Notes under the pieces: generated by a model
The model's database searches: none
Seen by the model: only the letters and a program-made list of their open reading frames with translations
What the model was told of the DNA's origin: nothing
Shown here: piece after piece, positions 688-27,188 of the stretch
How the letters are laid out: each line of letters starts with the position of its first letter
Numbering within the stretch: position 1 is the stretch's first letter
Position numbers and translations under genes: made by a program
Source: a virus
Lineage: Duplodnaviria; Heunggongvirae; Uroviricota; Caudoviricetes
DNA: 36,816 nucleotides
Virus record (IMG/VR): IMGVR_UViG_2563366829_000018
Coordinates: 1 to 36,816 of that record
Reading direction: 5' to 3' (one strand)

Positions 688-730
688 TCGCTCCCCCTCT
701 CCTGTCTGATGTCTGAATCTGTTTATGCCC

Positions 731-760
731 AAAAAACAACAGGCACCCCGGAGGATGCCT
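731..760 (-). terminator. Intrinsic terminator upstream of J (8-bp stem with one G-U pair, tetraloop, then GTTGTTTTTT on the minus strand)
   Basis: Minus-strand sequence AGGCATCC-TCCG-GGGTGCCT followed by a T-run, read directly. Confidence 0.45.
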
Positions 761-799
761 GTATCATGACTGAATAAAAATTCTGAATATCTTCACATT

Positions 800-827
800 T
801 TCACAAACTGACTGTGGCGCGTATAAT
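800..827 (+). promoter_or_regulatory. Sigma70-like promoter on the plus strand (-35 TTCACA at 800-805, 16-bp spacer, -10 TATAAT at 822-827)
   Basis: Hexamers read directly; sits 65 bp upstream of a plus-strand terminator with no ORF in between. Confidence 0.4.
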
Positions 828-833
828 TTCTCT

Positions 834-930
834 GCGTTAATTTTTTTGTCGTGATATAAGAATAATTCCTTACACTTAATCTTCGTAACTCTCCCGCAGT
901 TCCTGTCCGCGATCACTGCGGGATTTTTTT
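834..930 (+). ncRNA. Candidate small non-coding RNA (~95 nt) in the I-J intergenic region, antisense to the tail operon
   Basis: Predicted +1 about 7 nt after the TATAAT; no ATG-initiated ORF; ends in an intrinsic terminator. Confidence 0.3.
892..930 (+). terminator. Intrinsic terminator on the plus strand (CCCGCAGT...ACTGCGGG stem followed by ATTTTTTT)
   Basis: 8-bp stem with a 14-nt loop and a 7-T run, read directly. Confidence 0.5.
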
Positions 931-937
931 ATTCTTT

Positions 938-18198: not shown

Positions 18199-18203
18199 GC
18201 ATG

Positions 18204-18235
18204 TAAAAAGGCCCCAACACATGTGCGTGGGGCCT
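18204..18235 (-). terminator. Intrinsic terminator upstream of the lysis cassette (7-bp GGCCCCA stem, then TTTTT on the minus strand)
   Basis: Read directly. Confidence 0.45.
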
Positions 18236-18434
18236 GAGAGTATACATGGTTTCAGTCAACTGCATGGTGCCGTGTGCCTCCCGGTGAATTCAGTACCAGC
18301 ACCTGAATCCGCGATTATCCCATATACCTACTCGCTGATTGCCCCTCCGCACAGGGGGATTCACCATGCCAGTTTCTTTTGACAAACTCCCCGCAAAACA
18401 GACAACTGTCAACCGTCTGAATTGTGAGACATTT

Positions 18435-18473: not shown

Positions 18474-18550
18474 TGGCGCGTTGTACTGGATTCGAACCAG
18501 TGACCGATTGCTTAGAAGGCAATTGCTCTGTCCGGTTGAGCTAACAACGC
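18474..18550 (-). tRNA. tRNA-Arg, anticodon UCU
   Basis: 77-nt cloverleaf folded by hand: GCGTTGT acceptor, anticodon loop CTTCTAA, TTCGAAT T-loop, encoded CCA. Confidence 0.85.
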
Positions 18551-18563
18551 AGGGTACAGATAA

Positions 18564-18640
18564 TGGACCACCATCGAGGACTCGAACCCCGCGCAACCAG
18601 CTTCGAAGGCTGGTGCTCTATCCTGATGAGCTAATGGCGG
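18564..18640 (-). tRNA. tRNA-Arg, anticodon UCG
   Basis: 77-nt cloverleaf folded by hand: anticodon loop CTTCGAA, TTCGAGT T-loop, encoded CCA. Confidence 0.8.
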
Positions 18641-18647
18641 TATGTGA

Positions 18648-18723
18648 TGGTGGCCCTTGCTGGATTTGAACCAGCGACCTGGCGATTATGAGTCGCTCGC
18701 TCTCACCACTGAGCTAAAGGGCC
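18648..18723 (-). tRNA. tRNA with CAU anticodon, ileX-like (Ile2 via lysidine, or Met)
   Basis: GGCCCTTTAGCTCAGTGGTGAGAGCGAGCGACTCATAATCGCC...CCA closely resembles E. coli ileX. Confidence 0.85.
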
Positions 18724-26031: not shown

Positions 26032-27188
26032 TTACGCCCCCTTACCTCTGAAGGGTTCAGCGACAAATTTATGAGACTGGCCAGTAGCGCCGCGTCGTTG
26101 ATGCGGTCATACAGACTTACAGCCAGCGGGGATTCGGCTTTTGCCAACATGGGATAAAGCTGCTGCAGCCAGACCTTGTGGATTACCGACAGGTGGGAGT
26201 AAAGCACGCTGGCGTTATCTGCGGCATCGCTCAGCGTGGATGGCTTTGAAAGCAGTTTTTCCATCTGGTTAAAGGCATTGATGTATGCCTCTTTGAACCG
26301 GGCAGCACGTTTACCCGTGAAACCCATAGCAAGAAACGCAAAACCGTCTCGTGTGATTTGATAGCAAAGGAGCTTGCGTGTACCACCGTTCGGTTGATTT
26401 ACCGAAATCGATGTCTCCGCAAAATTGCGGGCACAAAACTCAGGGGAACAATCCAGAGTGCGGATCTTTTTCAGCACATCGTCGTGACGCTTGGAGAAGA
26501 AGTTGGCAACAGCCAAAGAAGTGGTAACGGCCTGGCCGTTGTCAATGGTGATTTCAGGTTGAGTGAGGGCTGGGATCGTAGCCATGATGGCAGCCTCCGT
26601 TGACAGTGAAAAACTTCCACCACCGGAAACGCCAATTTCACTGGTGGTGAACTGGACGGGGTTGGCGTAACCGGCGTCAACGGAGACCGGCGCACCTTTC
26701 GGTGCCCCCGCCCAGCCCACCATAATCTGGATGTGAGCAAATGCGGACGATAAAAAAGACGCTGGCGCGTCATACATCGCCGTTGACAATTTCAGGACGC
26801 CAATCCCGGCACCCGCTTTATAAGGTGCCTGAACAGTGTAACGTCCCGGAATTGCAGAATCAATATGCTGGTGGTCCTTCACACTCAACAAAATCACGCC
26901 TGAATTTCCACAAAGGACTAAAGCACTCATGCGGGTAGTCTTTGCGAAGATAGATAACGCGCTGTGTTTCTGGCTCCCAACGAATAACATGGACATAAAG
27001 CCCTCTTCCGTCACGAAACCAGCGGTTAAGTTCCTGCACAACTCGCCCCCCACAGTCAGGTAAAGTTCTCTGTGGTTACTTACAGCCAGGTGATTTGGTA
27101 ATCTGCATTCATGCCGTAACAACAGGTGTTCAGCGACGCTGACCACCAGCTGTTGCGACAAACGGTTATTTGCCGTTAAACTATTCAT
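26028..27188 (-). CDS. Rha-family phage regulatory protein with a ~200-aa N-terminal extension
   Basis: Rha-like core (ITIDNGQAVTTSLAVANFFSKRHDDVLKKIRTL) at residues ~210-300; ATGA coupling with the CII-like gene supports the long form; an alternative start at 26585 has a GGAGG RBS. Confidence 0.55.
   Translation of the reverse strand: MNSLTANNRLSQQLVVSVAEHLLLRHECRLPNHLAVSNHRELYLTVGGELCRNLTAGFVTEEGFMSMLFVGSQKHSALSIFAKTTRMSALVLCGNSGVILLSVKDHQHIDSAIPGRYTVQAPYKAGAGIGVLKLSTAMYDAPASFLSSAFAHIQIMVGWAGAPKGAPVSVDAGYANPVQFTTSEIGVSGGGSFSLSTEAAIMATIPALTQPEITIDNGQAVTTSLAVANFFSKRHDDVLKKIRTLDCSPEFCARNFAETSISVNQPNGGTRKLLCYQITRDGFAFLAMGFTGKRAARFKEAYINAFNQMEKLLSKPSTLSDAADNASVLYSHLSVIHKVWLQQLYPMLAKAESPLAVSLYDRINDAALLASLINLSLNPSEVRGRK

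Follow-up and report, generated by a model that had tools for sequence, protein, structure and literature searches.

The I-J junction and its features

The window, by which we mean the whole 36,816-nt stretch of viral DNA analyzed here, carries near its left end the adjoining tail genes I and J, both read from the minus strand (Table 1). The J product begins MGKGGGKAHTPREAK and matches the Pfam family FNIII-A_GpJ (E = 7e-42), and its RefSeq homologues carry the gpJ annotation. The earlier note had described a gap of about 250 bp between the two genes, and this is what we find (688-937), with tail gene I on one side and J on the other. Only 60 nt separate I and J in lambda, so its comparison with that phage stands. 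In some phages, the same gap also holds a sodC moron. In the window, it holds a predicted small RNA (sRNA) gene on the plus strand, which is convergent with the late operon, lies entirely within the spacer, and has a terminator that ends 8 nt short of the gene I stop codon.

Table 1. Genes, signals, and predicted RNA segments at the I-J junction of the window
Feature	Position	Strand	Details
Tail tip gene J, 5' part	1-687	−	GTG start at 687; continues past the left window edge
J Shine-Dalgarno region	691-702	−	GGAGAGGGGGAG; read from the sequence; 3-14 nt upstream of GTG 687
Hairpin plus U-run, resembling an intrinsic terminator	729-762	−	10-pair stem 762-739, then TGTTTTTTGG; just upstream of the J ribosome-binding site
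Conserved upstream promoter element	774-800	+	A/T tract GAATAAAAATT plus CRP-like TCTGA-N6-TCACA (782-797)
σ70 promoter P1	800-827	+	−35 TTCACA (800-805), 16-nt spacer, −10 TATAAT (822-827); 11/12 matches
Predicted primary sRNA, allele of the PasB/EcOnc22-24 family	834-930	+	~97 nt; covariance-model match 834-931, 97 bits
TAATTT	838-843	+	TAnnnT common to all alleles; T5, A6, and T10 invariant in the allele alignment
U7 run, then variable A-rich stretch	841-866	+	U7 841-847; A-R-N repeats AAGAATAAT, 858-866
Single-stranded segment equivalent to the PasB seed	867-891	+	TCCTTACACTTAATCTTCGTAACTC; contains the invariant core AATCTTC (878-884)
Rho-independent sRNA terminator	892-930	+	Stem 892-923 (core CCCGCAGT/ACTGCGGG), U7 924-930
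Tail assembly gene I, 226 aa	938-1618	−	Stop codon 938-940; Pfam Lambda_tail_I, E = 6e-17

The near-consensus plus-strand promoter that the earlier note had reported is present as described. P1 is the best of three promoter-like sites in the first 3 kb, a region for which shuffled sequences gave 1.8 such sites; consensus scans by themselves are weak evidence for promoters or terminators. Across alleles, the −10 box reads TATAAT, AATAAT, GATAAT, or TATCAT, with A2 and T6 always kept, and the −35 box is absent from the Sakai and BP-4795 types. Upstream of P1, 39 of the 41 distinct spacers keep the two CRP-like half-sites unchanged and at a constant distance from the transcript 5' end, and the half-sites are likewise invariant in seven diverse phages; their pattern occurs once in the window (0.26 in shuffles). 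This element may be an activator site or an UP element. Measured from the start predicted from the promoter, its CRP-like center (789.5) falls at −44.5, where a canonical class II site would not lie; measured from a start near 850, it falls at about −61, as a class I site would. Because CRP, FNR-like, and UP elements are not separable by this geometry, we call it only the conserved upstream element.

Judged by the promoter, the transcript would begin at 834; the published 5' end of PasB, a homologue discussed below, aligns to ~849, which would leave an RNA of ~81 nt. The TAATTT motif could be a candidate second −10 box, placing a 5' end near 850. The earlier note's self-contained noncoding transcript holds up, in that homologues yield discrete Hfq-dependent RNAs, but its length of about 95 nt is less secure, as the mature form may be ~81 nt.

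The strong plus-strand terminator claimed at the distal end is borne out by a hairpin followed by seven T residues. A consensus stem of seven pairs and the U-tail hardly vary among 16 alleles, and the terminator hairpin is the only structure that RNAalifold finds common to them, the 5' 60 nt being unstructured. No covariation was found in the terminator stem among these 16 alleles, in which the stem never varies; covariation thus neither supports nor refutes conservation of the structure. The window also contains the sequence prerequisites of an Hfq-dependent sRNA: a hairpin with a U7 tail (at least six are called for), U-rich sequence on the 5' side of that hairpin, and consecutive A-R-N triplets. 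Every allele has three to seven consecutive A-R-N triplets despite changes in sequence (three in the window allele, AAGAAUAAU), and this stretch is a possible contact for the Hfq distal face. A run of such triplets before the seed is a mark of class II Hfq sRNAs, which bind both the proximal and the distal face; with only three, the window allele is at the low end of the range.

The tail strand has a hairpin of its own before the J ribosome-binding site, which the earlier note had described as a separate terminator. The hairpin is there, and its stem is retained in other alleles, with changes near the loop. It does not belong to the cassette: the lambda, Shigella, and Citrobacter junctions, which have no cassette, carry in the same place a hairpin and U-run unrelated to those of the window. 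By this comparison, the tail-strand hairpin belongs to the ancestral I-J junction and lies outside the sRNA insert.

Conservation, distribution, and coding potential

The promoter region, core, and terminator are conserved in 41 distinct I-J spacers drawn from 80 phage contigs and in six further phages or prophages; outside these invariant parts, alleles differ by 26-31%. A covariance-model search, which the earlier note had proposed, was carried out with a family model built from the 16 alleles: it matches the window once, on the plus strand (Table 1), and matches E2348/69, Sakai, BP-4795, Stx2_499, 1720a-02, and PhiR12_1 with about 85-95 bits. The comparison with junctions lacking the insert, also proposed there, gave the converse result, with spacers of 54-65 nt and no covariance-model match in lambda, Shigella, and Citrobacter. 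A scan for the J N-terminus with one genome per species returned mostly lambda DNA in nonenteric assemblies, apparently contamination, plus Shigella and Citrobacter; we used it only as a source of cassette-free junctions and not as a measure of species distribution.

The window allele occurs at ≥99% identity in 613 complete Escherichia coli genome records (~11% of complete E. coli genomes), which argues that it is maintained. Its carriers include ExPEC, STEC, and environmental isolates, and none of the matches listed has a RefSeq annotation beneath it. E. coli genomes with the region often have several copies (median 2, up to 11 places). Rfam 15, searched with the whole window and, permissively (E ≤ 10), with positions 600-1050, gave no family at its gathering threshold; the best-scoring families in 600-1050 were PK-repZ, with 18 bits against a threshold of 44, and MicX, with 15.8 bits against 75, and both owe their scores to the terminator.

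As the earlier note had stated, the transcribed segment is free of open reading frames (ORFs): none of ≥15 aa lies on the plus strand over these ~60 nt. That note had also named a conserved small protein-coding frame as a finding that would speak against a noncoding RNA, and none was found across the distinct spacers. The spacer might still encode a small protein, either from a 50-aa minus-strand ORF (916-764) that appears in the ORF list or from one of the hypothetical proteins annotated beneath the match in some GenBank phage records; we give this almost no credence. ORF 916-764 starts with GTG and has no Shine-Dalgarno sequence, lies on the late strand inside the terminator complement, and varies in length and sequence; its frame is broken, shifted, or truncated in distinct spacers by indels that are not multiples of three, leaving no ORF common to them, and the transcribed plus strand has none at all. 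We therefore rejected the small-protein hypothesis, no frame being conserved among alleles.

Relation to PasB and EcOnc22-24

The earlier note could assign the transcript to no named family; here it was mistaken, because homologues have names, PasB in EPEC and EcOnc22, EcOnc23, and EcOnc24 in EHEC. PasB (pathogenicity-associated sRNA B) comes from prophage PP6 of EPEC O127:H6 strain E2348/69 (Pearl Mizrahi et al. 2021, Sci Adv, PMC8550237). It is 83 nt long, validated by Northern blotting, and Hfq dependent (log2 change in the hfq mutant, −6.8 and −2.4); it has 37 RIL-seq interactions, is the second RNA in 99-100% of its chimeras, and ranks 15 in the EPEC Hfq interactome, with partners that include ler, bfp/per, tolC, and ftsZ (PMC8550237). 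We found that its locus (NC_011601.1, 1466343-1466261) lies between the genes for tail assembly protein I and gpJ, on the strand opposite to theirs, and that the PasB Northern probe is complementary to the terminator hairpin. PasB and the window copy share site and strand, identical −35 and −10 boxes, a similar length, the GCGTTA/U-run 5' end, the AATCTTC core, and an identical 3' terminator arm with its U7. The I-J spacers of E2348/69 and the window are 85% identical, but the transcripts only 74%: the A-rich stretch and the seed-equivalent segment differ (PasB, UCCUUCACAUUGAUCUUCAUUUG; window, UCCUUACACUUAAUCUUCGUAAC), and the terminator loops are unequal in length.

EcOnc22, EcOnc23, and EcOnc24 are encoded in the EHEC O157:H7 Sakai prophages Sp15 (Stx1), Sp14, and Sp11 (Tree et al. 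2014, Mol Cell, PMC4104026; review, PMC7873438). They are ~85 nt by Northern blotting, bound by Hfq (Hfq-CRAC), and destabilized without it (PMC4104026; PMC7873438). An exact 23-nt match to their Northern probe occurs at the corresponding position of the Sakai Sp15 I-J spacer. EcOnc22 resembles the window copy in its I-J spacer location, its strand relative to the tail genes, its core, and its terminator (covariance model, 84.6 bits), and differs in that transcript identity is 74% and the Sakai A-rich stretch is shorter. The Sakai allele also lacks a second TTCACA −35 box, and its −10 box is AATAAT, compared with TATAAT in the window.

From these correspondences, we consider it likely that positions 834-930 are an sRNA gene of the PasB/EcOnc22-24 family, carried as a moron between I and J. 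Expression and Hfq dependence of the window allele are inferred from its homologues. The contrary view is that the segment has no RNA function and is a recombination scar or insulating spacer, whose signals are fortuitous or serve only to block transcription in both directions. Lambda works without the insert, and consensus scans alone would be weak evidence against such a view; nevertheless, we find it highly implausible, given that two other alleles produce discrete, abundant, Hfq-bound RNAs, that the promoter, core, and terminator are invariant amid the divergence elsewhere, and that the cassette is kept in the inducible phages BP-4795, 1720a-02, and PhiR12.

We found no literature equating PasB with EcOnc22-24, and a full-text search for the allele sequence or for descriptions of an I-J sRNA returned no papers. 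The table describing PasB gives no EHEC homologue (PMC8550237), a 2026 survey of PasB does not mention EcOnc (10.64898/2026.05.13.724894), and a 2021 review gives the targets of EcOnc22 as "unknown" (PMC7873438). According to that survey, variants of PasB are only a few nucleotides apart (Zhu, Shabalina and Storz 2026, bioRxiv 10.64898/2026.05.13.724894); it defined them by blastn with the 83-nt E2348/69 query, a word size of 28, and query coverage above 75%. Local blastn by this definition (word size 28) gave no match to the window copy, and at word size 11 only PasB nt 59-83 align (25/83 nt; 30% coverage). The window homologue thus falls outside the catalogued set of PasB variants and, by its sequence, is a divergent, unannotated allele of a known sRNA family.

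Predicted action, alternatives, and comparison with known systems

The conservation pattern (invariant promoter, core, and terminator; the terminator as sole shared structure; no conserved ORF) is typical of a base-pairing sRNA. We chose eight PasB RIL-seq targets among the partners given in the portion of the published list used here, and searched them for ungapped helices of ≥8 Watson-Crick pairs, with shuffles as control. For E2348/69 PasB, seven of these eight have such a helix, compared with 4.1 ± 1.35 for shuffles; the significance of the test is modest, as 8 of 200 shuffles reach seven. PasB nt 37-66, the counterpart of window positions 867-891, holds the best helix for six of the eight selected targets, among them fabR (11 bp), tolC (11 bp over the AUG), ydbJ (10 bp near the ribosome-binding site), and ler (9 bp). 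The survey of Zhu et al. 2026 places the PasB seed at the same position (10.64898/2026.05.13.724894). Against the same eight targets, the window allele scores 3/8, which is chance level, and the PasB pairings are lost. Unrestricted RNAduplex runs on RIL-seq targets produced long, loop-ridden pseudoduplexes over the whole sRNA and were uninformative; we set them aside for the ungapped-helix test. Inside the prophage, the search for targets gave no signal, the best duplex being −24 kcal/mol compared with shuffled-query minima of −26 to −32.

In a lysogen, host RNA polymerase would initiate at P1, possibly aided by the conserved upstream element, and transcription would end at the hairpin-U7 to give an RNA of ~97 nt, or ~81 nt if the start or a processing site lies near 850. 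Hfq would bind and stabilize this RNA via the 3' U-tail and probably also via the A-R-N stretch. Pairing in trans with host and accessory-genome mRNAs, in some cases at start codons or ribosome-binding sites, would then fall to the unstructured segment (~867-891) that immediately precedes the terminator. The window allele differs from PasB and EcOnc22 in this very segment and thus most likely has a target set of its own; that is, it probably regulates a different set of host messages.

The RNA could instead, or as well, act in cis: it would pair with the I-J spacer of the polycistronic late mRNA, to which it is perfectly complementary, from its own phage or from a coresident or superinfecting lambdoid phage, and pairing would lead to RNase III cleavage or decay, tuning the output of J and the tail genes or damping leaky late expression. 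Such a role would be compatible with action in trans. The convergent placement of the gene wholly inside the spacer agrees with it, as does the strict conservation of this position in every allele; several copies per genome make cross-pairing between phages possible, and the abundant late mRNA of lytic growth would also titrate the sRNA. As the main function, however, we judge a cis role unlikely. The complementary stretch (929-834) leaves >130 nt between its end and the J ribosome-binding site and stays clear of the I coding sequence, which makes direct translational control improbable. Fully complementary antisense pairs are usually Hfq independent, whereas the strong Hfq dependence of PasB and its 37 RIL-seq partners in trans are the signature of a trans-acting sRNA. 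A purely cis role would leave the body of the RNA, its most divergent part, unconstrained, but would not explain the invariant AATCTTC core.

Returning to action in trans, we suggest, tentatively and as something that may well prove wrong, that the I-J locus is an allelic seed-swap cassette, in which pairing segments are exchanged or diversified on a constant scaffold and each allele rewires different host genes. The scaffold would comprise the CRP-like/UP upstream element and −10 box together with the GCGTTA/U-run, AATCTTC core, and terminator. The window allele would represent an uncatalogued specificity class; cAMP-CRP may induce it when nutrients are poor or growth is stationary, and late mRNA may titrate it upon prophage induction.

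That phages should carry Hfq-dependent RNAs is unsurprising, as Hfq-dependent morons are well established in lambdoid phages. The window allele matters because prophage sRNAs rewire core regulation in pathogenic E. coli, and PasB is among the more highly connected accessory-genome sRNAs of EPEC. It also marks an annotation gap: an allele present in several hundred sequenced strains was missed by the only published survey and has no Rfam model. Treating EcOnc22-24 and PasB as one family joins two bodies of work; the covariance model allows systematic annotation, and the allelic series offers natural seed variants for tests of target specificity.

Close analogues outside the family include AgvB (RF02702) and AsxR (RF02703), which are likewise Hfq-binding lambdoid prophage morons of pathogenic E. 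coli with a conserved 3' part and a variable 5' part bearing A-R-N motifs. We rejected membership in either family: positions 600-1050 have no sequence or covariance-model similarity to them, the locus is another one, and AgvB and AsxR are shorter. Independently of descent, the window RNA might work as they do, as a sponge whose A-rich 5' part mimics an mRNA target and so ties up an sRNA of the core genome on Hfq. In the E2348/69-type allele, a C/A-rich AACAAAAACAAC may resemble GcvB target sites, and one partner of PasB in chimeras maps to the pasA region. The architecture, too, resembles that of the anti-sRNAs in its variable 5' region, conserved 3' region, and A-R-N motif (Tree et al. 2014, PMC4104026). 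Several observations make us think a sponge quite improbable: the best target complementarity adjoins the terminator, outside the A-rich part; the A-rich stretch of the window is A/U-rich rather than C/A-rich; and the Rfam search matched neither AgvB nor AsxR, whose genomic site and length differ. The anti-sRNAs, 51-60 nt long, are found downstream of PR', close to the lysis and stx genes (Tree et al. 2014, PMC4104026). AgvB and AsxR, moreover, sequester GcvB or FnrS, whereas PasB partners, among the matches listed in the portion of the RIL-seq data consulted, are overwhelmingly mRNA segments (CDS or 5'UTR).

Lambdoid-phage morons in general are autonomous promoter-gene-terminator units inserted between conserved genes of the phage (Juhala et al. 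2000, as cited in Tree et al. 2014). The window cassette has the same layout, with a promoter and a terminator of its own and a site between two genes that adjoin each other in relatives; it differs in that its cargo is a predicted noncoding RNA and is oriented against the late operon.

The I-J spacer cassette and its conservation

The spacer between tail genes I and J holds what an earlier note had described as a small-RNA cassette: a promoter, an ORF-free stretch, and terminators on both strands. Its coordinates and description proved accurate on re-inspection, and the interpretation as an sRNA cassette is supported. The sRNA promoter ranks best among three promoter-like sites in a consensus scan of the first 3 kb; it predicts a start at G834 and an RNA of ~97 nt, with no ORF between G834 and the U-tail. 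The sRNA terminator ends 8 nt from the gene I stop codon.

Features of the I-J spacer and of other RNA genes in the window
Feature	Position	Strand	Description
I-J spacer	688-937		Between two minus-strand tail genes
Gene I	938-1618	minus	Pfam Lambda_tail_I match
Gene J	GTG start at 687	minus	Pfam FNIII-A_GpJ match
sRNA promoter	TTCACA 800-805, 16 nt, TATAAT 822-827	plus	Consensus scan, 11/12 matches
sRNA intrinsic terminator	Stem 892-923; T7 924-930	plus	Core CCCGCAGT/ACTGCGGG
Tail-strand hairpin	762-739	minus	10 pairs, then TGTTTTTTGG; upstream of J Shine-Dalgarno
J Shine-Dalgarno	702-691	minus	
22-aa ATG ORF	709-777	plus	MSESVYAQKTTGTPEDACIMTE
STnc100	18199-18398	minus	Full-length Rfam match, 128.9 bits, E = 3e-28
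tRNA genes	18474-18723	minus	Three in tandem: Met(cat), Arg(tcg), Arg(tct)
C4 antisense RNA and isrK Hfq-binding RNA	26640-26828	minus	Adjoining matches, 81.4 and 62.2 bits

We extracted all I-J spacers from 80 IMG/VR contigs, selected for a J N-terminus with ≥95% identity to that of the window. Each of the 41 distinct spacers is at least 234 nt long and carries the cassette. Invariant or nearly so are an upstream block (TCATGAC.GAATAAAA.TTCTGAA..TCTTCACATTT); the −10 box, which always keeps A2 and T6 (TATAAT, AATAAT, GATAAT, or TATCAT); GC(G/A)TTA followed by a U-run; an A-rich stretch, always containing 3 to 7 consecutive A-R-N triplets, whose sequence varies by allele; the core AATCTTC; and CCCGCAG...CTGCGGGATTTTTTT. 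Four more phages (BP-4795, Stx2_499, 1720a-02, and PhiR12_1) show the same pattern. According to RNAalifold, the terminator is the only structure common to the alleles, and because it never varies, covariation is uninformative; the 5′ 60 nt of the sRNA fold weakly and differently in each allele. A covariance-model search, which the earlier note had proposed for 834-930, matched the window once (834-931, 97 bits) with a model built from 16 alleles; all tested homologues scored 85 to 105 bits. A conserved small protein frame, named in that note as evidence against a noncoding transcript, was found on neither strand across alleles, and we rejected a coding role for the cassette on this basis.

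The 22-aa ORF, on the same strand as the sRNA and upstream of the sRNA promoter, is retained in several spacer classes (for example, as MSESVYAPKTTGTPEGACVMTE) and has no visible promoter; its conservation probably reflects its overlap with the complement of the J ribosome-binding site and hairpin.

Relation to PasB and EcOnc22-24

No Rfam family matched the spacer, at gathering thresholds or at E ≤ 10. The earlier note could assign no named family, which holds for Rfam, but names for this sRNA do exist. Hfq RIL-seq in EPEC E2348/69 identified five prophage sRNAs, PasB among them (Pearl Mizrahi et al. 2021, PMC8550237). In table S6 of that study, PasB maps to the minus strand of NC_011601.1 (1466343-1466261; 83 nt; prophage PP6; Northern probe AATCCCGCAGTGATCGCGGAGCT). 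The genes flanking this interval in the RefSeq record are "tail assembly protein," which ends at 1466255, and "gpJ," which begins at 1466496; PasB is antisense to the two. The PasB spacer aligns to that of the window with 85% identity, and the two loci have the same −35 box, −10 box, terminator 3′ arm, and U7 tail.

EcOnc22 is an Hfq-CRAC peak in EHEC Sakai (2902714-2902774, plus strand, Stx1 prophage Sp15), with a Northern band of ~85 nt that is "destabilised" without Hfq and with EcOnc23 (Sp14) and EcOnc24 (Sp11) given as homologues (Tree et al. 2014, PMC4104026). In Sp15 (NC_002695.2), the minus-strand genes J and I have their facing boundaries at 2902690 (end of J) and 2902931 (start of I), which places the EcOnc22 peak inside the I-J spacer and on the opposite strand to both. 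When reverse complemented, the EcOnc22/23/24 probe contains a 23-nt stretch (GTTAATCTTCATCGTTCTCTCCC) identical to the Sp15 spacer immediately 5′ of the terminator stem. By shared site and strand, together with this match, PasB and EcOnc22-24 are one sRNA family at one phage site. We found no paper that states this equivalence: the PasB table gives no EHEC homologue (PMC8550237), EcOnc is absent from the text of the 2026 PasB survey (Zhu, Shabalina, and Storz, bioRxiv 10.64898/2026.05.13.724894), and a 2021 review enters the EcOnc22 targets as unknown (PMC7873438). The window cassette thus belongs to a known, experimentally validated family (EcOnc22-24 = PasB) that lacks an Rfam model. That the spacer is nonfunctional was rejected, given its conservation and the published Northern blots of homologues.

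The PasB 5′ end, published "according to RNA coverage" (PMC8550237), aligns to window position ~849 and gives an RNA of ~81 nt. An invariant TAnnnT at 838-843 could serve as another −10 box, or the RNA might instead be processed at the U-run. The upstream block holds TCTGA-N6-TCACA (782-797), which shares 9 of 10 positions with the CRP core TGTGA-N6-TCACA and occurs once in the window (0.26 expected from shuffles). In 39 of 41 spacers the half-sites are unchanged, though the sequence between them varies; the center of the motif is at −44.5 relative to 834 and ~−61 relative to 850. Spot 42 is repressed by CRP. PasB shows the opposite expression pattern to Spot 42 in the same data set (PMC8550237), which would fit CRP activation of the sRNA promoter, though the two growth conditions differ in much else. 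We offer CRP activation only as a hypothesis, as we do the possibility that this A/T-rich block could instead be an UP element.

Between the predicted start and the U-tail, the window RNA shares 74% identity with both E2348/69 PasB and the Sakai type and 69% with the BP-4795 type. The 2026 survey used an 83-nt PasB BLAST query with word size 28 and coverage above 75%. At these settings, a local BLAST gave no match to the window, so that the survey was unable to detect its allele; at word size 11, the alignment was limited to the last 25 nt of the query. Yet 613 complete E. coli genome records contain the 97-nt window segment at ≥99% identity, and 800 of 5,426 genomes have some match to it, with no annotated feature beneath it among the matches listed; a full-text search found no paper with its sequence. 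With all alleles included, the whole spacer matches 1,801 of the 5,426 genomes (median 2 and maximum 11 places per genome) and 149 phage records, mainly of Stx-converting phages.

The ancestral junction and exchange of modules

The I-J gap is 60 nt in lambda and 54 to 65 nt in the cassette-free junctions (lambda-type, Shigella flexneri, and Citrobacter werkmanii). This comparison with relatives lacking the insert, suggested in the earlier note, bore out the insertion: the covariance model has no match in these junctions. All those examined have a tail-strand hairpin and U-run directly before the J ribosome-binding site (AAACCGCCTGCGGGCGGTTTTGTC in lambda). The separate tail-strand terminator described previously is thus present before J but is not part of the insert: the window terminator at 762-729 is the positional equivalent of the lambda hairpin, and the inserted unit is therefore ~763-937.

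Every lambdoid junction examined (window 729-762; loci L083 and L089-L091) has such a late-strand element, with unrelated sequences (lambda, AAACCGCCTGCGGGCGGTTTT; window, ACAGGCATCC..GGGTGCCTGTTGTTTTTT). It looks like an attenuator or mRNA-end element within the late operon, conserved in position; to our knowledge, it has no named function. Lambda-identical junctions also occur in assemblies labeled Aquabacterium, Neobacillus, Kitasatospora, Chromatiales, Chromatium, and Leeuwenhoekiella (L084-L088 and L092), most likely through contamination with phage lambda DNA.

In the 343-nt spacer class, the J-adjacent segment is replaced by unrelated sequence with another hairpin, and the sRNA is identical to that of the window; the cassette therefore recombines as a module. 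In L008, L007, and ~30 other loci (spacers of 338 to 344 nt), the segment lost includes the tail-strand hairpin; the sequence in its place is ~140 nt long, and its hairpin (AAACCCCGGTATC..GATACCGGGGTTT) is different and apparently bidirectional. The I-J gap can also hold other cargo. In L009 (spacer of 1599 nt), the sRNA promoter is separated from J by an IS3-family element (~1100-2400) whose two transposase ORFs (115 and 248 aa) overlap. In L033 and L060 (spacer of 851 nt, ~1650-2500), sodC, encoding a Cu/Zn superoxide dismutase (Pfam Sod_Cu, E = 3.9e-32), lies upstream of the sRNA body on the same strand with its own terminator; the sRNA promoter and CRP-like block are replaced, and the breakpoint (...tgaGTTAATG) is the predicted sRNA 5′ end.

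Elsewhere in the window, the three tRNA genes lie directly upstream of the STnc100 match on the same strand, an arrangement typical of the late-region moron site of Stx-like lambdoid phages. STnc100 has been argued to be related to the prophage sRNA PasD (Zhu et al. 2026); counted with the I-J cassette, this brings the sRNA genes from Hfq-associated families in this prophage to at least two. The C4 and isrK matches are further regulatory RNAs, in its early/immunity part.

Hfq, partners, and the pairing segment

PasB has a 7-U tract, is strongly Hfq dependent (log2 fold changes of −6.8 and −2.4 in an hfq mutant), reaches higher levels in overnight static LB than in exponential DMEM, and has 37 interactions, being the second RNA in 99 to 100% of its own chimeras (PMC8550237). 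Partners in the portion of table S3 considered here include bfpB, bfpI, perB, ler, espC, ftsZ, rplX, galE, glk, gshA, fabR, ygeV, and yhhX (odds ratio 80, p = 4e-76), as well as the 5′ UTRs of tolC, ydbJ, and raiA (PMC8550237). We searched eight RIL-seq target segments from this portion for ungapped helices with E2348/69 PasB, using shuffled targets as controls.

Predicted helices between PasB and RIL-seq targets
Target	Length	Sequence	PasB nt	Position on target
fabR	11 bp	AAUGUGAAGGA	37-47	
ler	9 bp	UGUGAAGGA	37-45	
tolC	11 bp	GCAAAUGAAGA	50-60	Over the tolC AUG
ydbJ	10 bp	UGAAGAUCAG	46-55	12-21 nt upstream of start codon
gshA	10 bp	GGAGGUCAAU	45-54	
ftsZ	10 bp	GGACAGACGA	57-66	

A helix of 8 or more Watson-Crick pairs is present in seven of the eight targets (shuffled, 4.1 ± 1.35; 7 reached in 8 of 200 shuffles), and most sites lie within or adjoin the RIL-seq read interval. 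For 6 of 8, the best helix falls in PasB nt 37-66, just 5′ of the terminator, consistent with the seed that Zhu et al. (2026) proposed from conservation alone. The window allele is altered at many positions of the equivalent segment: on the same targets it reaches 3 of 8, which is chance level (reached by 154 of 200 shuffles), and it retains just a 7-nt core match on ler.

The sRNA, antisense to the late I-J message, may act on that message in cis, possibly alongside a role in trans. Yet >130 nt separate the complementary stretch from the J ribosome-binding site, and the Hfq and RIL-seq profile of the homologues is of the type seen for trans-acting RNAs. Complementarity of the sRNA to the rest of the prophage did not exceed that of shuffled controls. 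A sponge role, as for AgvB and AsxR, is less likely, since the PasB partners in that portion of table S3 are mostly mRNAs and pairing is located in the terminator-adjacent segment. From the homologue data and the chance-level result, we infer that the window sRNA would act in trans, depend on Hfq, and have a target set unlike that of PasB; the expression, Hfq binding, and targets of this allele are predicted. The window allele is a common but uncatalogued member of the PasB/EcOnc22-24 family with a different predicted seed.
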